DNA of 64,000 nt from Cyanidioschyzon merolae (GCA_000091205.1 AP006496.2), one strand, 5' to 3'; shown: positions 8,430-64,000, counted from the stretch's first letter. Program-made: numbers and translations. Notes: generated by a model from the letters alone, not told the origin.

Positions 8430-9340
8430 ACCTCTCCTAGTACCTCAGTGGTGTGTAGCAAGCGAACAAAGTCACTATGGAATGTACCCTGTAGATCGTA
8501 GAAGAATTGCCTGGAGGATATATTCTTTACTGAAAAGTTCAAGGAAGACTGCATCTCTCCTTCAGGTTAGTCATACCACGGTACTTAGATGGTTGAGGAA
8601 CGCTGAAAGGAAGAAGTACAAGCGCTCTGCACCTAAAACCGATATTCTCAAAGCGCGCTTGCGGGAAATGGTAGAAAACGACCCCTCGTTTACGTTACGG
8701 AAAGCAAAAGCGACGATAGAGGCCGCCACGGGCATCTCTGTTTCTCAACAGCTTGTTCGTGTGGTCCTGAAATCACTGGGATACCGTCGCAGAAAAGTCC
8801 AGCTTCACGCACGACCAACATCCACTGAAATCGCAACGACAGCGTTCATGGAGAGTCGCTATCGATATGAAGCCGAGTGACGCTGGTGTGTTTTTTCTGT
8901 CGATGAGACTTGCTTCGGGTGAAACGGGCGGTGCGTATATGGGTATTCGCGGAGCAGGGCGCTCATTGTACGTCTGTTGAAGCTCGAAGAGAGCGATGAT
9001 ATCCTCATCGGATTTATCTGGAGTGGGCCCGGGTGGCAGAATCACGTTCGCTCCTAGAGAAGGCGCACACAACAGCACCGACCTGGTCGATTCACTGGTG
9101 ACCTCTCCCTGACGTCTGGCGACGTGCTTCCAATGGACAATGTTGCATGTTACCATTCCCTTTGCGTTAGGGCTTTTGCCGATGATATCGGGGTCGAGTT
9201 GCTTTTCATTACTCCGTACGGTGCGTGATTCAACCTCAGCAAGGGAGTGTTTTTTATCATGCAACGTAATGATTGCTGCACTGGAGGAATCGCAGAAGCG
9301 TTCTGCACACAGCGACAAACCGGGAGCACAGGTCAGCTTT
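8430..9340 (+). mobile_element. Decayed Tc1/mariner (IS630-superfamily, DDE_3) transposon relic
   Basis: ORF 8482..8880 encodes a transposase-type N-terminal HTH (RRRIAWRIYSLLKSSRKTASLLQVSHTTVLRWL...). Downstream, in shifted frames, lie remnants of the DDE core: 'VFFSVDETCFG' (first D), 'MDNVACYHS' (second D) and 'GVELLFITPYGA*FNLSK' (degenerate LPPYSPDLNPIE block, stop in place of the catalytic region). Total length ~0.9 kb is shorter than an autonomous element. A second ~80% identical copy starts at 63690. Confidence 0.6.
8482..9330 (+). pseudogene. Tc1/mariner-like transposase pseudogene (frameshifted, internally deleted)
   Basis: HTH N-terminus is intact. The DDE_3 core is broken by frameshifts and a stop. 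Confidence 0.55.
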
Positions 9341-10022
9341 CTTGCGCAAACCCCGGTCTTCTTCGGGAACATCTCAACCTAGCGGCATAAAAAATGCATT
9401 CATTTTGAAGAAATAAGGGAATCCACGTGAAAGTAATGGACATGAAAGTCGGGGATACACGAGGGCCGTCATCGCCAGCCGCCTGGAAGAGAAACGGAAA
9501 AATCCTCTTCTCACCGAACATCGAGCGAAGAAGCGCAAGCGACGAAGAAGAAGGAGAAGGAGAAGAGGGGAGATCGTCGAGAAAACGTATTTGCCCAGCG
9601 GGACGAAGACGAGACTGTCGAAGCACAGCAGGCGCGAGCTCTACACAACCCTTGCAACGGTGAGTTCCACCAGCGGCAACAAATCGCAAAGAGTTCGTAA
9701 ACCGATCCTTCAACATCTCCATGAATACCAGACGATGTGCAGTGCTGTCGACCAGACCCGCAGAGCTGACGCGTTCCATCTTTGTAGTGTAGCCTCTGAA
9801 GCTCGAAGTATTCAAGGAGAAACTGAAGCCGATGCCAAGAGGCCCGTCGAAAAAAGACTGAGAGGCTTCAGAGGATATATACACGCCCCATGATAGTGCA
9901 AAGAACTGCGTTTCATTGAACACGCGCTGACGCGAGTACAGTTTGGTTGCGCTTGTACTTGCGGTAACGCTACGTCTCGAAAAGCGCGCATTAACCTCAC
10001 AGATGCTTTTCTTGCACTTCCA

Positions 10023-17649: not shown

Positions 17650-17905
17650 GCAGATCATTCTTGACGCTACATCCACGTTAGATTATTTATACTCGTTCTC
17701 GGAGATTCTGGTCATTTCCTGCGACAAAAAACTGCCGAGGCTGTCTTGAGCACCCGCAATAACGCCCATACAACCGGTGCGGATTCAGTACGGAGACGAA
17801 ACGGCTTCGAAATACTCCCGGGAGCGTCGGCTCGAGGCACGCTTCACTAGTCACAGAATCGGGATGCATCATCATTCTGGGAGCCTGAATCCTGCGCATA
17901 CGGAA
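17650..17905 (-). repeat. Dispersed diverged repeat, family A (copy 1)
   Basis: The reverse complement aligns with 31955-32185 (~70-75% identity by eye; shared blocks 'ttcaggctcccagaatgat..atcccgattctgtgactagtgaa', 'agccgtttYgtMtccgYactgMatccgcacc', 'aaatgaccag'). The same-orientation segment 17790-17900 aligns with 35030-35140. Confidence 0.5.
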
Positions 17906-19320
17906 GCACTGCCTGTGGAGGCGCGAAGCGATGTGCTAGGAGTCCACTGCGACCATAGCGACGCCCCTACGCAGCTTACCAGCTACGGGTCCCAGAATGA
18001 AATGCGTTTCGGACAAGCAGCCATGTATTGGCTCAGCACCCGTCAGTGCAGAAGCACACAAAGCGCTGGCCCAGAACACTCATCCGGCTCGCAGGACCTG
18101 CCTCTTAGACGTAAATGGTCGAATATACAGGGAATGTTTTCCCCTTTCATCGCTCACCATATCCATTCAAACACCAGGTTCTCGAGTTGCTAGTGCGCAT
18201 TTCGTTTCTTCGAGATTGCTCATGCACACGATTCTACCCGCCGCTGCGTCTTCTCTCCGTGCATTGCCGGGCACAGCAGCAGGCACACAGCACCCCGAGT
18301 GACATATGAACTGGGCATGCACTCCGAAGGGAAGCATGTTCAGTGACTAGCTTAACTTGGAGGTCGGATGCGGCATGATGGGCGTTTTCACTTATGTCGA
18401 TACCTTTCGCGTACAATAGCGCGTCGTCGGTTCCTCTGGGGGTTCCGTCGATCAAAAACACAGGCGCGATGCTGTGCGGGTAGCCGCGCGAAGCACTGCT
18501 TCCAAATAGCGTCAAGGCGAGATATCTTTTGATGATTGATCCACGAATCTGACCAGCAATCCCCGGGATATGCAACCGCTGCCTATACCCAGGGAAGCGA
18601 GCCCTCATGTGCTTCGGAGACCTCTGGGTCACGTGAATCACGCTCCAGTCTGACTGTCGAGAATGAGCGTTTCATTCACCAAACGAGCCTCCAAGCGTTG
18701 AATCCTAGTCCAGCACCGGACATAGCACCAGCAAACGCGGGCATCTCAGCACAGAACACGCGTATCGTGCCTGCAAAGAAGACTTCACTCGCAGGATTTG
18801 ATGTTTTTCTCACTGCATCCATCGATGGCAAGCGCCATGGTTAAATGCCTACCCGCTAGAATCTTTCCCGAGAATAGAGGATCGTTTACCATGACCAGGG
18901 ATTCCCCACTGCACGACGCTCACTGGTATCCGAGAGCGTGTCGCTTGTTCCGCACCTCACCGTCAGGGTCCATTGGCGAACCCGCTTCATCACTGTCCAG
19001 GATATGCTGGAGCATACCGAACGCAGTCAGCTGGGTACACGTGTGGGAAGCAGCCCGTCGAGAAGCGTGGCGCTGGGCGAGCTACATCTCCCGACGTGGC
19101 GGAACGGGTGCAAAGCATCCCAAAACAGCTTCCGTTCGTTGCTTGAAGCAAGTGCAGGCACCGGATACCGTTCAAAAGCGCTTTCATACGTATCACGTTC
19201 GGTTCGAAAGAGCGCTTCGTCCAAGTCGGGACTGGACGACGTTCGTGTGTTTCCGGAAGTGGAGACGCAAGTCGGCGACAATCCTTGTTTTACAGCTCCC
19301 GCAACAGTCGTAACAGCGCG

Positions 19321-27253: not shown

Positions 27254-29785
27254 GGTGCTCAGGTTACGGTACTGAACAGTTGCATAGTACCACACGTTCT
27301 ATACGTCAACTGATGGCGAATGCGTCTCGCGGAGCTCGCGTTTCGTCGATCGAGAAGCGCATCGATGCGATTCTCGATCAATAGAGCTGGTGCTTTCCGC
27401 TGCTGACGCTGCCGCCTTTTTTTGGATAGGCGTGGTGTGCTTTGGCATTTGTGAGCTTGGCAACCTGGTGTGCCACTGGCGCTTGCGACAGGCCCCATAC
27501 GGCTTGGTTTTCGAGCTTGTGTCGTGTCCGAACGACACACATTTGAGGTACTGGTGTGGGCAGGATGTACATTGATGACGCAGATAATCGCAGGCATCCG
27601 GTTTATGCTCGTGGGCATTGCGCAGCTGATGGTCTGGGTTCGGGCGAAGCATCGGCAGTCTCTGAAGGAATTTGGAACCCTCTATCCCTGGATGAAGAAA
27701 CGCATGCTTCCTTTCGTTTGGTGAATGCGCAGCGGGTCACGAAATTTGTGTGCGTGCTGATGGGCAAGCCCTGACTTGGAGGTACGAGGCCGGTGCGCTT
27801 GTGACTTTTCGTCACTTTTGGATGATGGTGGATTCGGTGATCGTTGGAAACCGTGTAGTGAAGTGCACCCATACTCGTGATGGTGCTCGATAGTCGAGCA
27901 ACCAAAGTGCACTCGGATATTTTTCCCAGAATACCGTGGCGGCGACTAGACATCACCCTGAATATGAACGTTTAGGGTACGCGCTTGTTTTACGTACGTA
28001 TTAGGAAACCGTAGCATGCTGTGCGGCTTCGTTGCGCACTATTCACGGCCAGCATGCCGTCACCAGAGCACCTGGTGCCGGCTGCAGCCTCCAGCTTCTG
28101 GTACCGATCGTTTGATAGCGCCAGTCAAGATGGATCGTTTCTTGACCTCAGCTCTATCACTAGCGTTTTCGACAAAACGTCATCAATATCAGAAGACGAC
28201 TGGTGATGGAGGCGCGACCGGCGGAGCTGACGCGGTCCACCTTTCTGGGACATCCTCTCAGGGTCGAATTGTACAAAGAGAAGCTGCAACCGATAGCAGG
28301 GGGCCGGTCGAAAAAGGCTAGGAGACGTCTGTGATTGGATATTAATTTACCCTAAATGGTCGTGAAACGTTTTCTTTCCATTGAACGGTAAGGGATAGAG
28401 AAAAAATCCGTCTCTCGAGCAGTTTTACTACTGGAAGGGAAAAATCAGCAGGTGGCTAACGAACATCCGCGTGCTTAAGGAATGGCGGGTGGCGTAGGGG
28501 GTGCAGATAAGTTTACGGTTTGGTGCTTGCACAACTACATACAAGTTAGGCTCTTGAAACTAATCTTATAGAGTAGATAAGAATACAGTATGTGCTTTTG
28601 TCGGGTGCCTCGATCGTGCCAGGCGAGATGCGTCGGCCGAACGTCGTGGCAGATATGGACGCTACCTGTGTGCTATGCCTCTGTCAAGATCACCGGGTCC
28701 GAGACAGTAGCAGGCACCATAACTTGGGCAATGACGATAGCATGGAAATGACTTGAACGGTCATCAGTACCAGCCCATGACGCCGGAAAGAAGCAAAATT
28801 CATGTCAGTTCCTTATTCCAGCGTCCGTGCAGCATGCATAACAAGCATAGAGAATAAACTTACATCCGTGTTCGGGAACACTACCGTATTTAGTTTGGTT
28901 ACGATCAATACAACTAACGAAACTCTTCAAGGCTAGTGTGATGCATACCTCATCCACACAAGCGTAAGCCGCAGAGAACGCTACGCTTTTGATAGAAGCG
29001 TCGAGAGGTATCGTGCCAGGCCCCAACAGCTCCATGTATGTCAGGGCGGTACTGCGATGGGCAGTAGCGTCGGCACCAGCGACATAGCCTATAGCAAGAG
29101 ACTACTCTACGTGAGTTTTCGATTTAGGACACCTGATTTTTGCTGCTGCGCGATGCGAACACGCAAGTGCCAAGGCGGGGTGTCGGACACGTGTCCTTCA
29201 TCGATCGGTGAGGCGTCTCGCGCGGTGCACGCATCGCGCTCGGTGAGCGCATCTGGGAGATCAGGCAGACATGAGACACGACATGTATGTCGCCGTTGAA
29301 GGGAAATGCGATCGCGATCTTTAGCGTGTTGCTCTCAAGTTGTATTTGCGTTAAAGTCATAGCAGAGTATACTTTTCAGGTCAATTATGTTTCAACCCTC
29401 AGTTTAGTTTATTCAAGTGATTTTTCGCGGTTTATATCAGAGGCGTTGATGGAGCGTTCTTTTTCAAAAAAACAAAAAAGGAAAGCTATGAAAAAGCAAG
29501 TCGGCGATCCTGGAGGCCCAGGGTCGCCGGCTGTCAGAAAAAAAAAACAAAAACAGTGCCGATTCCAGAAGAAAAGCAAGAGAAAAAGAAGCAAAAGGGG
29601 AGGCCTTACGTCGAAGGCGGCAAAAAAGACAACTGTACGACGAGATGGTGGTTAAAGGCTGTCTTCTTAAACAAATCAAGGATCCCCACAGGGAAACGTT
29701 GCGATACGCTATCGAAAAACGTGTCGACTCGTACTCGAAGAGTATTGTCAAGGCGTCGTCAGGACTGATGCATTTGTCGAGGTAG

Positions 29786-31713
29786 ATGTATCGCGAAGTG
29801 GCGCACATGGAAACGGTCGAGATTCCGGACGAGTTTTTCGACAAGACCTCTATTCGTCAGCTGATGCTTGGTACAGGGGAAGCGCGGAGGGAAACTCAGA
29901 TAGTGCATGCCCTCCACGAAAGCTTCGCGGAATTCCGCTTCGAAGGTAATCGATACAAGGGTGACTCGACTATTTACATATACGGGGCGGTGAAGTACCT
30001 CACGAACCTGAGGAACCATATGACGATGGACCTCGAACATTTTATGATACGCGCCGTGTTCGCTCTCGACCCGCGCATCTCTCGCAAAGGTGCACAGGCG
30101 ATGATCAATGGCATCACGAAAGATCGCAAGCGTGAAGATGAGGTCGAATTTGTAGACAAGAAGGCGTCAAAAGAGCGCATGAATGAAGCTTCTGTAATCC
30201 GTGCGGCTATCCAAGAGCATCGTGCGGTACTGGGGTTTGTTAATCCAACAGAAAAGATATCAGAGTTGAAAAAAGACAAGGAAAGATACTATCGCCTCGT
30301 CCTGCGATATTTCGTGTTTCTGGACCGAGAGCTCGAACGCAAAGCGGAGATGAAGCTGAGTGAGGAGAGAATTAAAAAAGAGTGGGAGAGACGGGCGGCT
30401 TCGCTCATGGGAAGCGCTTCTACGCGGTTCCAATGTGCAACATCAAGTCACATTTTGTGACGATCGACTCCAGCATCCTCTATGGCATCATGAGACAGAT
30501 CAGTGGGGAGTTCGATGTTAGCAACGGGAAGTTCATCGGTGAAAACCGGGAGATGCACTAGAAGAATATCTTCGAGTTCAAACTTCTCAAAGCGGGCAAG
30601 CAAAAGTTGTTCACTGGGATGATCGAAACCGATGGAGTAGCCTTGTGTGTACACGATCCGCGGTTGACGAAAGATCGTTCAGTGCCGCCCTCGGCTTCGC
30701 CCGTGGCGAAGGATGCAGAAAACAAAGCGGCGGATCCTGCGACGCAGCAGGTAGAGGATAACGACCTTGTCGTTGGTACGGCGAAGCATGAAGATGAGAA
30801 GGAGGCGGGTCTTGAGACGCAGAAAGTGCAGGATAACGACTTTGTCGTTGGCGCGGCGAAGCATAAAGATGAGAAGGAGGCGGGTCTTGAAACGCAGAAA
30901 GTGCAGGATAACGACTTTGTCGTTGGCGCGGACCTCGGGAACACGAATATCGTAACCATCGCAGCATCCACGCCTGGGGAAGATGATACTGACGGTGACT
31001 TACGTCAGAGAGACACGCGACTTTTGAGATTCCCGACAACGAGATGCTATCGAGAATCCGGTATAACGAATGCAAGGAAGAGAATCGAGATATGGAATGC
31101 AGGAGTGAAAGAGCACCTCGAAGCTTTGAGCGAGGTAACGAGCCGCGGAGCGGACTTTCGAGCTTTTCGGGAATTCCCGCAAGTTCGTGTTGCTCATTGG
31201 GATGCGCTGTAGAGGAGTATACAAAGCCTCGGTGGGCTCGTTTGCGAATGAACTTGCACTGTGGGAAGCAGCGTGCATTCGCGAATTTTTTCAATGAGTT
31301 GCGTGCCCTGAAGGAGGATGAAAGTCAGAGGCCCGTAGTAGCGTCTTGGGCAGGGCGATGGAAGACCCAAACAGGGACTACTCCAGCTCCAACGACGAGG
31401 GTATGCAAGGAGTGTGCACGGCGTTTCGTTACAATACCGATAGATGAGTTTCGAGCATCGTATACACACCACGAGCTGGGTTGTACACTTCAGAGGGTCG
31501 AGATGGAAACGTGTCAGCGGCGCCCTGAGGATACAAAAAGTACGGACCGCTGACGGAAGAGCAAATGGAAAGGAGGGCGACAGTTCGTGGACTCCTTGCA
31601 CTAGCGCTTTCTGCAAACAACGGCAAGAAACGTATCGAATCGTGAACGGAGACTTTAACGCCGCTATCAATATAAGGAAATGTACGGTGATGGAAAGAAG
31701 ACCTCCAGAGTAG
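29786..31713 (+). CDS. Fanzor-like RNA-guided nuclease (eukaryotic TnpB homologue), interrupted gene. Four ORF segments lie in different frames and are most likely joined by introns.
   Basis: Segments 29786-30460, 30607-31212, 31044-31553 and 31444-31713. RuvC-I '[21 protein letters not shown]' (D codon at 30931). Zn-finger CxxC '[10 protein letters not shown]' (31404). '[11 protein letters not shown]' (31594). RuvC-III '[15 protein letters not shown]' (D codon at 31651). Order I, ZnF, III with ~240 aa between the RuvC-I and RuvC-III aspartates. Total span ~640 codons, typical for Fanzor1. Confidence 0.6.
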
Positions 31714-31889
31714 ACGAGTGAGAACTTTGGGGACAACCTCTCAGCGTGGGACTATATGAGAAAAAGCTGGAAGCAGTAGTGAGTGGCCGCCCCCAAAAAA
31801 CCGGGAGGCACCTGCACGACAGTTGGAGGCTTCTTGTCTAGGGCGGGCTTCGCGCCACTACTGTACAAGGTCGGCATCGTTTTTCTTTT
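31600..31889 (+). ncRNA. Candidate omega-RNA scaffold (3' end of Fanzor ORF plus conserved non-coding tail up to the element right end)
   Basis: ~175 nt after the stop codon (31714-31889) is conserved between both copies and ends at the exact point where the flanks diverge. This position is analogous to TnpB/Fanzor omega-RNA. No structure or expression evidence is available. Confidence 0.25.
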
Positions 31890-31954
31890 GAAAGACGTTT
31901 GTTTCCAGGGGTGGCTCCTAGTATATTGCTTCGCGCTGCCGCAGGCACTAGTCC

Positions 31955-32185
31955 TGTATGCGCAATTTCAGGCTCCCAGAATGATAAGGAATCCCGATTC
32001 TGTGACTAGTGAACCGACCGTCGATCCAGCATCCTCTGTAGTATTGCAAAGCCGTTTTGTATCCGCACTGCATCCGCACCTGCGGTGTCAGCGCTATTAC
32101 GCATGCTTGAAGCAATTACTCTGCGAATGATAGAACGTACAAAATGACCAGTACATCCGAAAGTAAGTTTAAGTTATGGAACTTG
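31955..32185 (+). repeat. Dispersed diverged repeat, family A (copy 2, inverted relative to copy 1)
   Basis: See 17650-17905. It lies ~65 bp beyond the right end of Fanzor element copy 1. Confidence 0.5.
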
Positions 32186-32723
32186 AACGTAAGTTTCACT
32201 TTGATGAACGCATTTGGGACTACCAATATCCATCCCCGCAATAACGGATCCAGGGTCGATGTACAGGTTTAGCCATCGGAAAAAATATATTGCGTAAGCA
32301 GCCTTCATATGTCAGCGCTCTTGTATGCTTCGGATTCCGAACCGGGCTTGCCCGACGTAAGCGCCCGAGGCACGCAGGTGTAAGAAGCCAGCGAGCGAGG
32401 AAGTCTGCTGGCTAAAACAGCAGTCGGGCAAACCAGCGAGCCAGTGTACTCCACGAGGGCGAGACACGAGCTCGCCTGCAGCCGCACGTGCTGGGTACTT
32501 CAGCGACTCCAAACGAGCCACCGCTCAAACTCTTTTACGTCAAGCAGTTGTGGACGTCCCGTGGTGATGCAGACGAGTTTCTGCCTGAGGCAAAAACGTT
32601 TTGGAAATAGGTCAACTTGGCGGTGAACGAGGACCTGGTAGTACTGGCAAGTGGCCCTGTCGACGACACTGTGGAGGCATGTTCACCGGTGGCGAAGCAT
32701 TTGCGCCAGCGCCTCATCGTCCC

Positions 32724-33731: not shown

Positions 33732-34974
33732 ATGCACTGGATGCGTGTTTTGTAAGGAGATTTTGCATAGAACTCGAGGGTATCGGAGAATGCAGACGCT
33801 TACACCAGCATATGCTCCGAGGCTGCCTCGAACAACGTTCGTAACGACGCGATTCGATCCAATTTAGTACAGTCGAGAGAGCAAGCCTGTCCTGCTCGTG
33901 TCGAGCGAGATCGCCGCGTGGAATAGTACTCAGCGCTGCTCTGGATCCTGCCAGTGGATTGCCCACAACTGCCAGAATACGTATTCGCAAAGCGCAGGGA
34001 TCGAGCGACAGATGACTTTGCGGACACCACTTCTCTTGGTGAGTCGGCGCCAGCGATCGGTAAAACTGGTTCCGTTCATGGACAAGGCGGCACGGATACG
34101 CTCGATTTGCGGTCTGGCAAGGAAACGAAACACGCTGTAGTGTCTACGAAGCCAAGTACGTTCAAGGCAGCAGCTTTGTTCGGCCATAGGTTAGAATCGT
34201 TCCATGAGACATGCAGCATGTAACAGAGACTATGAAGCGTGCAAGTGTATTTCTGGACTGCGTGCACACGCCAGAATCGGCATTGGCCGTCAAAAAAGCA
34301 GGCTGAAAGGTATTCTCTGTGTTTCCAAGGACGCATTCGGACTCGTTCAGTAAATCAACGGGCTTCATCGAGAACGCGGACGCAGGACTGGAGGTCGACG
34401 TGCGTACGGATGCGGCAGCGCTATCCGCAGCATCACTTGAACCAGATCTGGAAGGGGCTTGTTGTGAAGTATACCTCTGTTGCTTCACTTGTTGGTATTC
34501 GAGCCATTCGGATGCTCCGTATTTGCTCCGCATCATCAACACCGTGCTGAACGGCTCCCGTGGCGTGTATGTGTCCATGAAAGCGACGCGAGCTCAGAGT
34601 CTCGAGTGCATGTCGAGATCGCACTGCAAATTCCCGTTAAAAGGATGCGACGCTCACCATCAAATGCAGCTTCCAACGATAAATCTCTGTACACGGGTTT
34701 GTGGTGGCAGGTTGTCCCATTGCCGTCCAGATGGGTGCACACCTTCTGAGCAATATGCAGCAGCGTTTGCATATTTTCAATCGGCAAAACGTTTGCATAG
34801 GCCAGCGTTCTCCGATTGTGCGCTCTTTCTTTTCTTACTTTTTTTCAATGTGCGGTGAAGTATCCATCAAACATCCTACCTCCAAGTTACATCACCTATA
34901 CTTCTTCTCGGATATTCTGGTGGTTTTATAAGTTCTATCACTCACCTAATGCGCGCCCTGCTAGTCCGCAAAGG

Positions 34975-35140
34975 CTCCTGAACCGCTGGAACGGGTTCAC
35001 CACAGTGACAGAACGGCGTTACCGTACCACAGCGGGCGTCGGCTCGAGGCGTGCTTCACCCGACGTAGAATCGGGTCTCATCGTCAGTTTGTGCTCAGTC
35101 AGTCTGCGGATGCAGGCTTGCCTTCGCTGCACGAAACGCT
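34975..35140 (+). repeat. Dispersed diverged repeat, family A (copy 3, partial)
   Basis: 'gcgtcggctcgaggcRYgcttcac...agaatcggg...catcRtca' aligns with 17815-17900 (~65-70% by eye). Confidence 0.4.
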
Positions 35141-36057
35141 GGAGGAACTTGGCTGTTAGGATGAATTCTGGGAGTCGTCTGTCTCCTTCGTGATCATGCA
35201 TGGAATGCGTTCTTGGTTGGCAATGCGGGTTTGTGCTTGACACCCACCACAGTGGGTAGGCGCAGAGAGCACTGGGCCCGTGTGCGCATCCGATTCGCTG
35301 GACCTTCCGCTTGGAAGGTAGCATGTGAGTTTGTTCGCCACTGATGAGCGCTGAGGCTCGGTTAATGGACCATCAGTTGCCAGTGCTACACTCAGAGTGA
35401 GTGTCCGGCCTTCGTCTATCACGGTGAAGCCCAGCTGCTGCTGTCCTTCAAGGAGCTCGGTTCGCTCCTGTTTCCAGCGCGGGCACTGTAAGCCTAAATA
35501 TGCCAGCGTCTCCGGAATCTCGTCTCGATAGCAGGGACAGTGTTATTCCCAGTGCGATTCCAGTGTTCCTATACGGCTTAGAGACGGTGCTGCTCGCCAG
35601 AAGCCACCGACGCGTATTGTGGCGAGCCACTAGGTACCTCGAGCTAGTCCCGGGAACTCCAGCGCCTCCCACCAGTACGTGCATGAACAGGCTAGGCTGT
35701 AGTTCCGGTACAGAGTCAAGCCGGCGTTGAGGGCGCGACTGGTTCCGTGGCTACGTTCCCATATTGTTGTTTGGACCGTTCGCTTAAGGCGGCGGGAGCC
35801 TTCTATATTTCTGGGGAACGATTGGGGAGCGTGTTTTCGCCTAGGGGGCGCTTCAGCCAAATCTGCGTTGATTTCAACCAAGTGATCTTGCGGTGCATTG
35901 GGGTTTGCATGGATATGCGACTGAACCAGGTGTGCATGGTGGGCCCTTTGGCCCATATACGTGCCCGGTATCCTGCTGCTATCGCTTCTGTCGAGGATTT
36001 CTGGAGTTCAAGTCCGAGTGCCAGGAGGTATCGCGGTCGATACGCGCACCTCCATAT

Positions 36058-38420
36058 CTGGCGGGCATGAAACACCACGCGCATGTCGCCGTTAAAGGGA
36101 AACGTGATCGCGATCTTTAGCGTGTTGCTCTCAAGTACGAGTTGTATTTGCGTTAAAGTCATAGCAGAGTATACTTTACAGTTCAATTATGTTTCAACCT
36201 TCTTAAACATATCAAGGAACCCCACAGGGAAACGTTGCGAGACGCTATCGAAAAACGTGTCGACTCGTACTCGAAGAGTATTGTCAAGGCGTCGTCAGGA
36301 CTGATGCATTTGGCGAGGTAGATGTATCGCGAAGTGGCGCACATGGAAACGGTCGAGATTCCGGACGAGTTTTTCGACAAGACCTTTATTCGTCAGCTGA
36401 TGCTTGGCACAGGGGAAGCGCGGAGGGAAACTCAGATAGTGCATGCCCTCCACGAAAACTTCGCGGAATTCCGCTTCGAAGGTAATCGATACAAGGGTGA
36501 CTCGACTATTTACATATACGGGGCGGTGAAGTACCTCACGAACCTGAGGAACCATTTGACGATGGACCTCGAACATTTTATGATACGCGCCGTGTTCGCT
36601 CTCGACCCGCGCATCTCTCGCAAAGGTGCATAGGCGATGATCAATGGCATCACGAAAGATCGCAAGCGTGAAGATGAGGTCGAATTTGTCGACAAGAAGG
36701 CGTCAAAAGAGTGCGTGAATGAAGCTTCTGTAATCCGTGCGGCTATCCAAGAGCATCGTGCGGTACTGGGGTTTGTTAATCCAACAGAAAAGATATCAGA
36801 GTTGAAAAAAGACAAGGAAAGATACTATCGCCTCGTCCTGCGGTATTTCGTGTTTCTGGACCGAGAGCTCGAACGCAAAGCGGAGACGAAGCTGAGTGAG
36901 GAGAGAAATAAAGAGTGGGAGAGACGGGCGGCTTCGCTCATGGGAAGCGCTTCTACGTGGTTCCAATGTGCAACATCAAGTCACATTTTGTGACGATCGA
37001 CTCCAGCATCCTCTATGGCATCATGAGACAGATCAGTGGGGAGTTCGATGTTAGCAACGGGAAGTTCATCGGTGAAAATCGGGAGATGCACTAGAAGAAT
37101 ACCTTCGAGTTCAAACTTCTCAAAGCGGGCAAGCAAAAGTTGTTCACTGGGATGATCGAAACCGATGGAGTAGCCTTGTGTGTACACGATCCGCGGTTGA
37201 AGAAAGATCGTTCAGTGCCGTCCTCGGCTACGCCCGTGACGAAGGATGCAGAAAACAAAGCGGCGGATCCTGCGACGCAGCAGGTAGAGGATAACGACCT
37301 TGTCGTTGGTACGGCGAAGCATGAAGATGAGAAGGAGGCGGGTCTTGAGACGCAGAAAGTGCAGGATAACGACTTTGTCGTTGGCGCGGCGAAGCATAAA
37401 GATGAGAAGGAGGCGGGTCTTGAAACGCAGAAAGTGCAGGATAACGACTTTGTCGTTGGCGCGGACCCCGGGAACACGAATATCGTAACCATCGCAGCAT
37501 CCACGCCTGGGGAAGATGATACTGACGGTGACTTACGTCAGAGAGACATGCGACTTTTGAGATTCCCGACAACGAGATGCTATCGAGAATCCGGTATAAC
37601 GAATGCAAGGAAGAGAATCGAGATATGGAATGCAGGAGTGAAAGAGCACTTCGAAGCTTTGAGCGAGGTAACGAGCCGCGGAACGGACTTTCGAGCTTTT
37701 CGGGAATTCCTGCAAGTTCGTGTTGCTCATTGGGATGCGCTGTGGAGGAGTATACAAAGCCTCGGTGGGCTCGTTTGCGAATGAACTTGCACTGTGGGAA
37801 GCAGCGTGCATTCGCGAATTTTTTCAATGAGTTGCGTGCCCTGAAGGAGGATGAAAGTCAGAGGCCCGTAGTAGCGTCTTGGGCAGGGCGATGGAAGACC
37901 CAAACAGGGACTACTCCAGCTCCAACGACGAGGGTATGCAAGGAGTGTGCACGGCGTTTCGTTACAATACCGATAGATGAGTTTCGAGCATCGTATACAC
38001 ACCACGAGCTGGGTTGTACACTTCAGAGGGTCGAGATGGAAACGTGTCAGCGGCGCCCTGAGGATACAAAAAGTACGGACCGCTGACGGAAGAGCAAATG
38101 GAAAGGAGGGCGACAGTTCGTGGACTCCTTGCACTAGCGCTTTCTGCAAACAACGGCAAGAAACGTATCGAATCGTGAACGGAGACTTTAACGCCGCTAT
38201 CAATATAAGGAAATGTGCGGTGATGGAAAGAAGACCTCCAGAGTAGACAAGTGAGAACTTTGGGGACAACCTCTCAGCGTGGGACTATATGAGAAAAAGC
38301 TGGAAGCAGTAGTGAGTGGCCGCCCCCAAAAAACCGGGAGGCACCTGCACGACAGTTGGAGGCTTCTTGTCTAGGGCGGGCTTCGCGCCACTATTGTACA
38401 AGGTCGGCATCGTTTTTGTT
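36058..38420 (+). mobile_element. Fanzor/TnpB-like element, copy 2 (degenerating)
   Basis: Collinear with copy 1 but lacking the 258-bp segment 29406-29663. Flanks are unrelated to those of copy 1. Confidence 0.6.
36322..38246 (+). pseudogene. Fanzor-like nuclease pseudogene: premature stop, RuvC-I substitution and 3-bp deletion relative to copy 1
   Basis: TAG at 36631-36633 where copy 1 has CAG (Q). RuvC-I reads 'VVGADPGNTNIV' (L>P, ctc>ccc). 'ERNKEWERR' versus '[10 protein letters not shown]' in copy 1. The frame structure is otherwise identical to copy 1. RuvC-III '[12 protein letters not shown]' is retained. Confidence 0.6.
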
Positions 38421-38502
38421 TTGAAAGGCGGTGGTGGTGTGGTGTGTGTACGTCCTTTCTGAACCGCCAATTTTTCGATAAAAGCCCGAACTGCGTGAGA
38501 TT

Positions 38503-44464: not shown

Positions 44465-46696
44465 TTGCAGAACCGCTTGTTTGCTCGCGTAAAACATGTA
44501 CACTGACCAAGATCAAAATGCAGGAACGCCAATATCTTCTACGAATTGCCTGGGAGAATCGGTCCCGGTTTCTGTATACAGCGATTCAGGCTTGCTGGAC
44601 GCCTGCTTCGTGGAACCCCAGTGTCTCGCGATCGGCGAGAGTCCAACGCGCTCTCACCCGACCACTGATGTATTTGCATCGCAAGTCTTCGGCAATTCAG
44701 TGCATTACCTAGACTGTGTTCTAAACAATGCCCTCCAAGTCCACGCACCCCAGAGCCGCTAAAAGCCCCGGAGGCATGACATCATCGTCGAAAAATGACC
44801 AAGGTGTTCAAGTCTGTGTCCAGAGAGTGCTTGCGCGCATGGTCGCTGGCGGAATCACACGGAAACGAGCGTCGCTCCATCGATCGCATGGCCATCCGAC
44901 GTTTCCTCATCTTAACGGACATCTTCTGATGCATATGAATTTGTTTGCAATCCCATCTTCCCGATCTATTCCAGGTGCACCTGTGCTCTTTATAAGCGTA
45001 CCTCGTCCGAAACGCATCGGTGTTCGTGGTCCAGAATCGATTCCTGCACCCGTCGCACGTTGTCGTCGAAGGATGCGGCGTGCCGCTTTCGTGCGTGGCA
45101 CTACGTCCAGCGTTATTGGATACCACGAAACGGCGCCTCGTATCGGCGATTTCCATCTTCAATTCATTGCAATGTATCATGGATGCACGCATGTTGCCTC
45201 CTTAGAACCGAGACCTGTGGAGATGTCGGCTCGGTTTCGTGGGCACCCGCCAAAGATCGCCCGCATGAGCCGCTTGGACGCTCATCTACGCTCTCTGAAT
45301 AAAGCCTCCAAAACGTCCCTTCTGCTTGGTAGGGTGCTCAGAGCATGGTGATGTGTTCGGATACCGTCATGCCAACTGTTCGTATTCCTTTTAGCGTTCC
45401 TATGTCCGACGCTCAATCATACAGATCCCTCGACAAACGGAGCAGCTCCAACTGCTTTCCGTTCCTGCGTTTCGCCCCGTGCGCTCGATTTTTCTGTACA
45501 GCAACGACCATGACGATCTTGGACCCGGAATCCGGGCTCACCACGAAGCGTTCCTCTTCAGCTGCCTTGCACGGGTGAAAACGAGTCTCGTTAGATAACT
45601 CAGGCCTTGATTTCAGGAGTTTTACACAGATCATGCAGATGGATATTCTGTCGGTCTCTCAAGTCTTTGCGTACTTCTTTCCATTTTCTGCCCGTCTACG
45701 GGGAACCTTGATCGAGCTCCACCAATGCCCATTGCGAACTTTGTCGAATGCTTCATCGTTGATCACAGGTACCGACTACATCGCTTGTTCTTGCGCGGTA
45801 TGCTGCTATAGATGTCGCCTCTAGACTTCATACCCGCTTACTTCCGGTTAGTTCAGACGCACTGGATGCGCAGCAACACAGAATCACGTCTTTTCTATGT
45901 ATTTACCCACCATTCCTCGACTACAATTCATTCACCCTCTACGTCGTGAGCACGCTCACGGGCAGAAGCGAACCTTTCTGCCCCGGCCCGAGCTCGAGTA
46001 GAGAAGCGGCGTACCTGTCCAATGGTGCTGAAGGTAGAGAACAACTCGAGTAGAAACATGCGAGTTTCAAAACGGTGTTCGATAACAGACAAGACACCTG
46101 CGACTGCACTTACCTGGATCGACAGAACTTCTACACTAGCCAGGCATCGCCGATTCCGCGATTATCGTCGGTATCGCGGAGCGTGTCTCTCGTTCTTCGT
46201 ACGACATTCAAGCTCCGTAACCCATACTTATCCATGGAGATTCTGGCCATTCCGTACGTTTCATCGTGCTTCAAACCTGCCGTGAACGTCCGTCATAGCA
46301 CTTGTGGCGCCGGTGCGCACGCTACATGGAACAGAGCAGTGTTGTTTTGGACTGTACTGATGTAGGGCGAATAGGCTGGCCCAGGGAGCAGCTCAACGCC
46401 AATCTCAGCTGCATAATCCCTCGGCCGCTTTTGAGTGATGCAACCCGAAGTCGTCCATGACCAGGACAGAATCGTGTCGGCAGGAGAATCAGCGAGCAGT
46501 ACTGCGATGAAGGATGCAGTGTTTTACCATACTGCCGCTCTGGCGACGAACAGACGACCGCATGATTGCATCGTCGCTCGGGAAGCTGTTGTGGACGCGC
46601 GCGCATGGCCGCCTCTGTACGAAGAGCGGTTTGCCCCTACTGGAGTTCCCCTGCAAACGCCTGTCATGTCAAGTCTCGTCGAGTGAGCCGAACACG

Positions 46697-57012: not shown

Positions 57013-58700
57013 AAGTTACATCTTCTATGCGTACGCATGCCCGAGGGGCATACGTGTTCCGTGGAGCAGTGCCCGAGCATGGCGGCGGGTGCTCCATATA
57101 CATGTCCGTAAAACTTGAAATGTTCTACGACCACGACGGGTATGCGTACATTTTTACGCGCTTACGCCTCTTAGCTTTTCTGACCGGCATTCTGCTATCG
57201 GTTTCAGCTTCTCCTTGCACAGTTCGAGCCTGACAGGCTGCCAAGTGAAGCAGGAATTGTGTCAGCTCCTCGGGTCTCGTCTTCAGCACCGCACATCGTA
57301 TGATATTGATGACGGCGTTGAAGTCTCGCTTCACCAACTCCTTGCGTTTATTGCCTCTGGTTGAACTCACCAATGCAAGGATTGCTAGAACTCGTGCTCT
57401 CTGTGCCGTTTGCTGCAGTGTCAGCGCTGCGCTGCCTTCTCTCCATCACGATCTTCTGCAGTGTACATCCCAGCACATCCCTTACATATTTTGATTCTTC
57501 AAATGTACGCACTTCTTTATGCCCGTAGGTAAGGAATTCCCCTGAAAGAGAAGGACTGGTGGCAGAAACAGGTCATGCGCCCTGGTGTGTCACCGTGTGC
57601 TGAACGCATCAGCGATTCGCCCAGTGCAGCGATGTTTACGTTTCACGATGGAAAACATACACTGAATGGGCATGAACCACGGAGTGTACGGCGGAATGAA
57701 AATCAGCACTATCCCCGCCAGAATTTGCAAAAACCCCGAACTTAACGGTAATCTAGAAATGCCACGTGGTCCTTTAGAAGAGCGTCGTCATACGGCATCG
57801 AAAATTCTCCAATGATTCGACAAAGAACGTGCTGTTGTATCAGCCTTGCCTGTGAGCGAAACTGAGGCCGCCAAGTGGATCCGCTCCACCTGGACCAGAC
57901 GATGATTTCCGAGTTCTCCTCACGTTCGATTGTACATACAACGGAACACCCTGCTCCGCGAATACCCGTATACGCTCCAACCGTCTCATCCGATGAAAGT
58001 CTCATCAACTGAAAAAACAAACCGACTTGCCTGTGCTTCATACCGATGGTTGAGTTCTGTGAATTCTGTTGTTGCGGATTCGGCGGAAGCTGTGCTTTCG
58101 TGAACCTGGACTTTATTGCGCCCGGATCCCAGTGTTTTGAGGGTCAAACGAACAATCTGTTGAGAAACAGAGACGCTTGTGGGAACTATTATCGTCGCTC
58201 TTTGCCTTCCGCAAAGAGATCGATCGGTTGTTTTTCTACCGTAGACCGCAAAAAGTCTTTAAAAATATCGGTTTTTGGCACTAAACTCCTTTCTTCTTTC
58301 ACTGTTCCTAAACTATCCGCGTACCGTGGTACGACTGACCTGAAGGAGGAGCGCAGTCCTTCTTCCACTGTCCAGAAAAGAATATATATACTACAAGCGA
58401 TTCGTCTACGATGTATACGATACTTTGCATCGTGATTTCGATAGCCTCCTACGTGCCACACTCTGGGTGAAACAGACTTGCGTTGAAAGATTATGAAAAC
58501 CCATGCAGCCTAGCAGGCAGGTCGGAGTACGTAAATGAATCATATTGTTCCGTTCACAATGCAACGAGTCGCGCAGTCGGCTGCGGGCGGACGAATCGCG
58601 TACCGCGAGCCACGTTGTATGAAGCGGTGTCTGTCTTCGCACTGAAGTCGACGTCGATACTGCTTCTCCGGACGCTCGCTTCAACGCGATCCGGGAGAAG

Positions 58701-59255: not shown

Positions 59256-60864
59256 AACTGTGACTTCGGCGACTGCACCGCGACTTGCCCGGTGCAGAGT
59301 ACCAATCGGATTGCATTCGGTCTTGGTGAACAGGGGATTGCTGGAGTTACGGCCCGAGGAATTTATGATATACGCTTTGAAGTTGCTAAATAACAGATGG
59401 CGGCGGGAGCATTCGGAGCGGAAACGCATGCACCACATCTGGGGCAAATGATATTTAGGCGATAGAACATGGTATCTTTACAGTCTGCCGCAGCACAGCG
59501 ACCTTGTGTGTCGTACCCTGAGTTCTTTTACACACGCATCACCGTCCCTGAGTAGATTGTGTACGTTCGTTTCCGCAAGCTTGCGAACCAAATGCGGATT
59601 CAAGGCCATGCGAGTAGTTTGTCCCGAATACGTATGGGCGAGGTTTCGGAAACATGATCTTGGTTCCGATGTGGACGCCTATCCCGAAAGGAACGGGATG
59701 TAACCAGCCTTATAAACAGAGCAGTTAATTCTAGAACAGCTGTACCAGCACGCTCTTTCTGTTGGTACATGTCATTCTCGCGGGTATTAAAGAAACAGAT
59801 AGTATCCTCTAGACTAGAGAATCGTCACGGAAATTCGAAAAAAATGTCACTATTTGGGAATGAAATGGCCTCACTTCAATAAATCAGTAATTCTACGCCC
59901 ATCAGCCGGATGAGTCATGTCCCTCGTTGGCAATATGCTGAGCGCCGTGCACCAGAAATAGAACATATCAGACGCTGTCTGCACAACTGTCTCCTGATCG
60001 TTTCATTCTAATCCATGCGATCTCAAAGCAACGCTACCCAAGCATTCATAAGATGCAGAGATTCCGTGCCGCACATGTGAACGGAGATGAAGAGACACCG
60101 ATGGACAAAGAAAAAACAAGCTTCCATGGCAGACCGTGGCGCGTTGAACCGGACACAATCGAATTCGCACTGAAACGCGACCGCATACGATACGAGCTAC
60201 AGCTATTCGTCCCAGTCGATGAGCGTGTACGCGGAAGAAACCCTAGACATGTATAGGAGCATTCAAAGAGTGGTAAAACGCTGCTCGCAGGGAAGGGGTG
60301 ACAGAACATGACGACTTGAGAGTTACGATACCTCGCAGGTCTCACGAAAGTGCAGCAGTAGAAGCTCGCTCTCCCCTGGTCGAGACCTATGTAAACTGTA
60401 GCGGGGAGCAAGTACTGAGAAACTGAAACCGATCGGAATCGGCTGGTCAAAAAAGTCTCGGAGGCGCCTGCGCGTGCGTAGATGTATCCGCCATCGATGG
60501 TTGTGAAACGTTCTCGTTCTGCTGACCATTGAGAATATCGACTGGTACCGGTGAATCACGCCTTGGTCCCTCGCCTTGATCGACTTGACAAAACTGTTCT
60601 GTCTCCGTGCTGCATGCGCGCCGGCACGATCAGCGCACTATCGCGGAGGCTCGCGGCCCACGATGCAACGTAAGAAACAACCAGTCTCGCTGGGGGATCG
60701 TACGGGTACTGGAACTTGGAAGCAGGTGAAACCACGAATGCTTCCTCTGATCGCTGGCATCAAGCGCACAATGGCAGAGATCCCTGGTCTATATGTGTAG
60801 ACGAGCTGTCGAGCACGAGGCATCTGGAGAATGTGTCGAAAAAACACCCGTGATCATCATCATC

Positions 60865-63689: not shown

Positions 63690-64000
63690 CACCCTAGCTG
63701 CGGTGGTGAGCAGGAGCTCGAAATCACGATGCAATGTACCCTGTAGATTGTAGAAGAGTTGCCAGTAGGATATACTCTTTACTGCATAGTTCAAGGAGGA
63801 CTGCGTCTCTTCTTCAGGTTAGTCATACCACAGTACTACGCTGGTTGAGGAACACGGAAAGGAAGAAGTATAAGCGCTCTGCGCCTAAAACCGATATTCT
63901 CAAAGAGTGCCTGCGGGAAATGGTAGAAAACGACCCATCTTTTACCTTGCGGAAAGCAAAAACGACGATAGAGGCCACCATAGGCGTATCTGTTTCTCAC
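63690..64000 (+). mobile_element. Second copy of the Tc1/mariner-like relic (5' part, truncated by the window end)
   Basis: 63731-64000 aligns with 8476-8745 at ~80% identity, including the HTH-coding region (…SLLQVSHTTVLRWLRN…ILKARLREMVENDPSFTLRKAK…). Confidence 0.55.

Follow-up and report, generated by a model that had tools for sequence, protein, structure and literature searches.

The DNA analyzed here is a stretch of 64,000 nucleotides (the window), which carries long, intron-free eukaryotic genes for Sec1, a BK channel, a trehalase, an ABC transporter and an Upf1-like helicase. Identity of the trehalase was 99% with a metagenome protein, 68% with the nearest NCBI protein, 52% with that of Cyanidium caldarium and 42 to 44% with those of Galdieria, and the nearest group is the Cyanidiophyceae. 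From these identities, the host was placed among Cyanidioschyzon-like red algae and judged to be near, but distinct from, species already sequenced. When the window was compared with itself by BLAST, two Fanzor-like copies were found in direct orientation, at 29260-31894 (copy 1) and 36056-38427 (copy 2). We compared them with 80 related loci from one metagenome scan and with 78 relative proteins. These relatives stem from metagenome contigs of other, though related, algae, and only L049 was as close as 98.6% identical to the bodies of both window copies, representing a third young copy. The features of the two elements, with the boundaries reached below, are collected in Table 1.

Table 1. 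Coordinates of the Fanzor1 elements and adjoining features in the window.
Feature	Coordinates	Strand	Remarks
Fanzor1 core unit, copy 1	29233..31903	+	5' block, disrupted Fanzor ORF, 3' non-coding (omega-RNA-like) region, right end ...TTTTGAAAG+ACGTTTGTT
Fanzor1 core unit, copy 2	36030..38441	+	Without 266 bp (equivalent to 29397-29662)
Family-wide conserved 5' non-coding block, copy 1	29233..29319	+	nhmmer profile (E 3.7e-24), alignments, conservation step, BLAST HSP starts
Conserved 5' block, copy 2	36030..36115	+	Other lineage: 74% identical to copy 1 block, 88% to L001-3 block
15-nt motif, copy 1 (gcagaCATGAgACAC)	29265..29279	+	Internal segment of conserved 5' block
15-nt motif, copy 2 (gcgggCATGAaACAC)	36061..36075	+	
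Tract 98.4% identical to 36106-38427	29310..31894	+	Left edge inside 5' block; putative recent conversion/recombination tract
3' non-coding region and right end, copy 1	31714..31903	+	Presumed omega-RNA scaffold; conserved in 27 relatives
3' non-coding region, copy 2 equivalent	38247-38441		
Upstream module "class B," 687 bp (~690)	28545..29232	+	Joined to core in 18 loci; fits TE-N2_CMe description
Upstream module "class A/D," 1.25-kb repeat	34774..36029	-	Poly(A)-like end at 34774; other end joins copy 2 core

The open reading frames of the two elements, at 29450-31713 in copy 1 and 36199-38246 in copy 2, are distributed over three frames and contain in-frame stops, at identical places in both, so neither window copy retains an intact ORF; the 266-bp gap in copy 2 removes the K-rich N-terminal region. 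A search of 5.8 billion proteins returned only metagenome relatives, with at most ~60% identity. Introns were considered as the reason for the broken ORF and were rejected, because P0001, an intact 752-amino-acid relative, is colinear with the window sequence across the frame changes. Since this colinearity holds only when the three frames and the stops are bridged, the window copies are pseudogenes and not intron-containing genes. Pfam, NCBIfam and PDB sequence searches with the protein yielded no significant match, and its identification as a Fanzor came solely from comparing structures. An AlphaFold2 model of P0001, made with 49 relatives (pLDDT of 76, pTM of 0.71), showed the two lobes and the RuvC domain of a Fanzor fold, and its top seven PDB matches by Foldseek were all Fanzor1 proteins, namely SpuFz, PpFz and GtFz (Spizellomyces, Parasitella and Guillardia), with E values of 5e-16 to 1e-13 and target-normalized TM scores of up to 0.70. 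The predicted structure thus supports, at the level of the fold, identification of the protein as a Fanzor1. It shares with SpuFz1, GtFz1 and PpFz (PDB 8gkh, 9cez, 9cer and 9cf1) this fold and the DPG at RuvC-I but differs from them in sequence (~14% identity) and in a disordered repeat insertion of ~95 residues before RuvC-I, and the window copies, unlike those proteins, are pseudogenes. The RuvC catalytic pattern (DPG in RuvC-I, E in RuvC-II and RD.NAA.N in RuvC-III) was found: P0001 reads GADPGNTN and VDEFRTS, with a RuvC-III of that pattern, and the window sequences read GADLGNTN (copy 1) or GADPGNTN (copy 2) and IDEFRAS, again with RuvC-III. Three tandem 75-nt units in the ORF (30705-30931 and 37238-37464), which encode similar repeats of 25 residues, fall in the insertion before RuvC-I, where the model is disordered (pLDDT of 20 to 30). 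On the minus strand, 44626-45760 holds a decayed piece of another Fanzor-like gene, which is distantly related to this family (25 to 35% amino acid identity).

Downstream of the ORF, the conserved 3' non-coding region covers ~190 nt and contains a predicted long-range stem (AGTAGTGGGTGGCCGG with CGCCACTACTGT) that shows almost no covariation; an Rfam scan of 27.5 to 39.5 kb returned nothing relevant and no match to this region. The right end is conserved in most copies (~40 loci) through ...TTTTGAAAG GCGTT(T/C)G. What follows is GT-rich, resembles (GTT)n/(GTG)n and varies between copies. In the window, the bases past GAAAG, GCGTT included, lie at 31895-31915 and 38428-38452, and they may represent the end of the scaffold, a tail or a target preference. 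Neither terminal inverted repeats (TIRs) nor target site duplications (TSDs) were found at the boundary pairs 29233/31903, 28545/31903 and 34774/38441. Older, partial Fanzor 3' remnants are scattered in the window at 28202-28331 (+), 9735-9869 (+), 57157-57296 (-) and 60417-60484 (+). The first three of these break off near one position of the profile (~135 to 140 of 230), and the remnant at 28202-28331 lies ~210 nt upstream of the class B module of copy 1.

The initial annotation of this DNA had drawn attention to a 15-nt sequence, gcRgRCATGARACAC, which it placed just outside the left ends of both Fanzor elements and proposed as a candidate target-adjacent motif (TAM). That the sequence is common to both copies was confirmed: it is present in each, in equal register with respect to the conserved left end. 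Its core, CATGARACAC, has exactly two matches in the 64-kb window (29270-29279 and 36066-36075), where ~0.39 would be expected by chance; two or more matches were obtained in 4 of 100 shuffles. Both occurrences, together with the conserved left end, lie within one gapless alignment of 29260-29340 with 36056-36136 (86% identical), and the similarity therefore reflects homology and not chance. A second shared string reported downstream, catgtcgccg, is exact in copy 2 (36082-36091), but copy 1 reads catgtatgtcgccg. The statement that similarity ceases further upstream did not hold either, since the gapless match runs for 5 nt more, to ATCNGGC at 29260/36056. Beyond ATCNGGC, a weaker match between copies 1 and 2 (18 of 28 positions, with one indel) reaches 29233/36030, and the family profile described below places this weakly matching stretch in a block conserved throughout the family.

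The extent of this block was apparent from the relatives. Alignment of 42 distinct left ends showed that homology across differing upstream sequences begins with (C/T)ATCGCGCTCG... (also (C/T)ATCGCGCTCGGTGAGCGCACCT...), ~28 nt before the pairwise boundary between copies 1 and 2 and ~33 nt before the motif. Among 32 non-redundant loci, conservation rose from 0.51-0.59 to 0.78 at 29233, was 0.75 to 0.78 across the region singled out by the initial annotation, reached 0.92 at 29293-29312, over GTTGAAGGGAAACGCGATC, and then ran at 0.76 to 0.92 into the coding region. The near-invariant GTTGAAGGGAAACGCGATC (29295-29313) forms the end of the copy 1 block. BLAST HSP starts clustered at 29231-29237, and the start of the block is resolved to ~3 nt. 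An nhmmer profile of the block, the match to which spans ~87 nt (with conservation carrying on into the coding region), was matched over its full length in ~55 loci, and the two blocks listed in Table 1 were its sole hits in the window. The similarity noticed between the two copies is thus part of a longer conserved terminus. Because they lie within a 5' block that so many related copies carry, the shared 15 nt are very probably an ordinary internal piece of the element. Their placement outside the left ends has to be given up in favor of the fallback offered with it, namely, that they belong to a true but more divergent left terminus. The block may represent the 5' cis region of a mobile or transcribed unit and could serve as a promoter or leader and/or as a recognition site of the transposition machinery.

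The motif itself varies within the family. By per-column counts, its core is dimorphic, reading GCATGAG in 13 to 15 of 31 copies and TCAACTG in 13 of 31; the columns concerned are 29269 (G/T) and 29272 to 29274 (T/A, G/C and A/T). CATGAG is thereby changed to CAACTG in ~40% of the relatives. G29265, A29276 and C29279 are nearly invariant, and C29279 is listed as invariant in the per-column counts. The ATG in the 5' block (cATGtcgccg) opens a frame of ~120 codons (29287-29655 in the window, L001:5726-6100 and L024:1642-2781), which in L024 continues into the Fanzor ORF. As this ATG is not kept across the family, the frame is probably a chance product of a lysine-rich leader.

These observations bear on the proposal that the 15-mer, or part of it, is target DNA beside the insertion that the Fanzor nuclease reads as its TAM. 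The proposal follows an established model for IS200/IS605 elements, in which the insertion specificity of TnpA equals the TAM of TnpB (bioRxiv 10.1101/2023.08.09.552727), and it accords with the shared register of the motif in the window copies and with the end of BLAST-level similarity 5 nt upstream of it. A TAM, however, should lie in the target DNA, directly abutting the element's first base, and should recur as a short motif of 3 to 6 nt across independent insertions with unrelated flanks. The motif instead lies ~33 nt inside family homology that starts at 29233/36030, its core occurs as two haplotypes, and its 15 nt far exceed the measured Fanzor TAMs of 3 to 5 nt (CATA, TTAAN, CCG and TAG; PMC10432273). 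Nor do the sequences that truly precede the block have anything in common. The block is preceded by ..GCACG in 18 loci, including copy 1; by ..TCTAAA in ~21 loci; by ..AAAAAAG in 7 loci; and by ..CCAGGRGG in 4 loci, including copy 2; the remaining junction types read ..GCGCC and ..GTTTG. A conserved short motif 5' of the block was sought across these ~six unrelated junction types, and none was found. Because several of the junction classes are themselves amplified composites, this comparison covers ~6 to 8 truly independent insertion events. With homology reaching upstream of the motif, a dimorphic core and no shared upstream sequence, the family data provide no evidence for a TAM here; together with the measured lengths of Fanzor TAMs, they lead us to reject this interpretation as extremely unlikely.

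IS200/IS605 ends bear subterminal hairpins, and the motif might alternatively supply the 5' arm together with the loop of a hairpin conserved in the DNA or RNA, GGC(A)GRCATG ... CATGYCGCC, as a possible recognition structure. The arms are indeed complementary over 9 bp in several copies, and 72% of cells pair in register compared to 26 to 60% with a slid partner. RNAalifold, however, returned no structure over the motif, with a consensus energy of -1.99 kcal/mol and zero compensatory pairs. In a shuffle test that took in the motif hairpin and a second named hairpin, the percentage paired was reached by 292 of 500 column shuffles and the covariation score by 336 of 500. Moreover, the TCAACTG haplotype breaks the stem, and the 3' arm is unchanged. 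Since neither RNAalifold nor explicit pair counts gave a signal above shuffles, the hairpin was rejected, and we regard it as improbable. The elements resemble IS200/IS605 TnpB elements in the superfamily of the nuclease and in having a 3' non-coding RNA-like region whose end coincides with the right end. They differ in that we found here no Y1 transposase, no conserved short 5' motif and no supported subterminal hairpins, and in that the motif lies inside the element.

The internal position of the motif was obscured by a step in identity between the two copies. Copies 1 and 2 differ by 11 substitutions in the 50 nt at 29260-29309 versus 34 in 2,316 nt elsewhere (Fisher P = 7e-10), and the "strongly conserved left end" is therefore the edge of a highly identical tract and not the edge of the element. 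The bodies, including common disabling mutations, are 98.4% identical, compared to 74% for the 5' blocks. The blocks nearest to that of copy 1 are those of L014 and L061 (0.83 to 0.85), those nearest to that of copy 2 are those of L001-3 (0.88), and the two window blocks follow different upstream repeat modules. The motif thus looked like flanking sequence because 5' blocks of different old lineages stand in front of nearly identical bodies. Judging from the identity step alone, the two copies, which belong to different 5' lineages, most likely exchanged sequence by gene conversion or recombination. The bodies of the neighboring copies, which are 6.8 kb apart, would have been homogenized by such an event; copying of a young body into an older copy would be an equivalent route. 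The ends of the tract would lie within the 5' block, at ~29290-29310, and at the right end.

Formally, the outer 50 to 80 nt could differ simply through faster mutation or absence of constraint, with no recombination or conversion between lineages. The divergence step is the sole direct observation, and a local difference in rate could in principle produce one. However, the block is conserved about as well as the other 5' region (0.75 to 0.92 across the family), each block is closer to blocks of other genomes (0.83 to 0.88) than to that of its neighbor (0.74), and the upstream modules on the two copies are unrelated. We therefore consider this explanation very improbable and favor conversion or recombination between lineages. 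The practical value of the result is modest: two neighboring copies are not enough to locate the left boundary in this Fanzor1 family, because conversion tracts mimic element ends, and TAM inference must accordingly rest on many independent insertions. For the locus, the consequence is that two degenerate Fanzor1 copies receive corrected boundaries and one candidate TAM is removed, which carries little weight overall.

A Fanzor1 family with a similar architecture has been described. CMe-1A of Cyanidioschyzon merolae comprises ~150 copies, each ~80% identical to a consensus of ~3 kb; some copies are intact, TIRs are absent, TSDs are not recognizable, and the 5' 635 bp also exist, identical in sequence, as an element of their own, TE-N2_CMe (Bao and Jurka 2013, PMC3627910). 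Copy 1, with its 687-bp module (28545-29232) followed by a 2.67-kb core, shows the corresponding properties: a length of ~3 kb, a 5' portion of about the 635 bp reported that is a repeat in its own right, no TIRs and a cyanidiophycean red algal host. Copy 1 thus fits CMe-1A/TE-N2_CMe feature by feature, in a comparison made with the published description. A difference is that at least three further upstream modules are here found in front of the core. In the MCi-2 Fanzor1 subfamilies of Mucor circinelloides, 3' ends are likewise conserved and 5' regions differ (Bao and Jurka 2013, legend to Fig. 8A, PMC3627910). Those elements, however, belong to another host and another family, and the junctions described here share a single fixed position, at which the ends of other repeats meet the core.

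That fixed point is the core start at 29233, which abuts three repeat families precisely at their termini: class B, class C and the 1.25-kb poly(A)-ended repeat, the last by either end. The 5' modules are variably truncated, and the 5' extents of the class B module vary among its 18 loci. The 1.25-kb class A/D repeat has two defined ends. Its poly(A) end abuts the block in seven loci, and in L075/77/80 the repeat cuts into the block. The composite formed with copy 2 has an identical junction in L001-3, where only the equivalent of 34774-38441 is shared; neither outer flank shows any relationship, and for this reason copy 2 and L001 were rejected as an orthologous locus. An identical junction between unrelated outer flanks indicates that the class A/D module and the core moved as a unit. 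Given this pattern of junctions, together with a constant 3' end, the variable GT-rich tail behind it and the absence of TIRs and TSDs, we considered whether copies of the Fanzor1 family might be mobilized as units anchored at the 3' end, either by retroposition with template-switch or read-through chimeras or by end-to-end joining of excised elements; we regard this as speculative and on balance unlikely. If true, such spread would be unlike the classical cut-and-paste or IS605-like routes. The recurrent joining of the core start to the termini of other repeats may bear on how a transposase-less, "solo" Fanzor1 moves.

Several further observations concern the modules themselves. The 1.25-kb repeat, with its poly(A)-like end GTCCATGAAAAAAAA, stands alone in L051 and L081; elsewhere it meets the Fanzor 5' block with one or the other of its ends and, in one lineage, lies inside the block (the loci listed for this repeat are L024, L035, L029-31, L041, L003:1570-1656, L075/77/80, L051 and L081). 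A 255-amino-acid ORF in class A was considered as the C terminus of a LINE reverse transcriptase and rejected: its CxC...CP pattern is a mere resemblance, and there was no Pfam match. We therefore refer to class A as a poly(A)-ended repeat and not as a LINE. The class C module, which precedes the Fanzor core in ~21 loci, occurs alone in the window at ~17741-18245 (+), and an inverted class C copy (31911-32194, minus strand) starts 8 to 17 nt past the right end of copy 1. Four loci (L071:1-1400, L046:3134-4518, L081 and L006) have at least 1.4 kb in common to the left of the element and unrelated right flanks; the common segment contains a protochlorophyllide-reductase-like SDR gene, a solo right-end-like sequence of ~110 nt and the class B module. 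Another repeat family, with 71 to 88% identity between copies, is present in the window at 8450-9328, 57576-58438 (inverted) and 63702-63999 and in 6 to 8 of the fetched loci.
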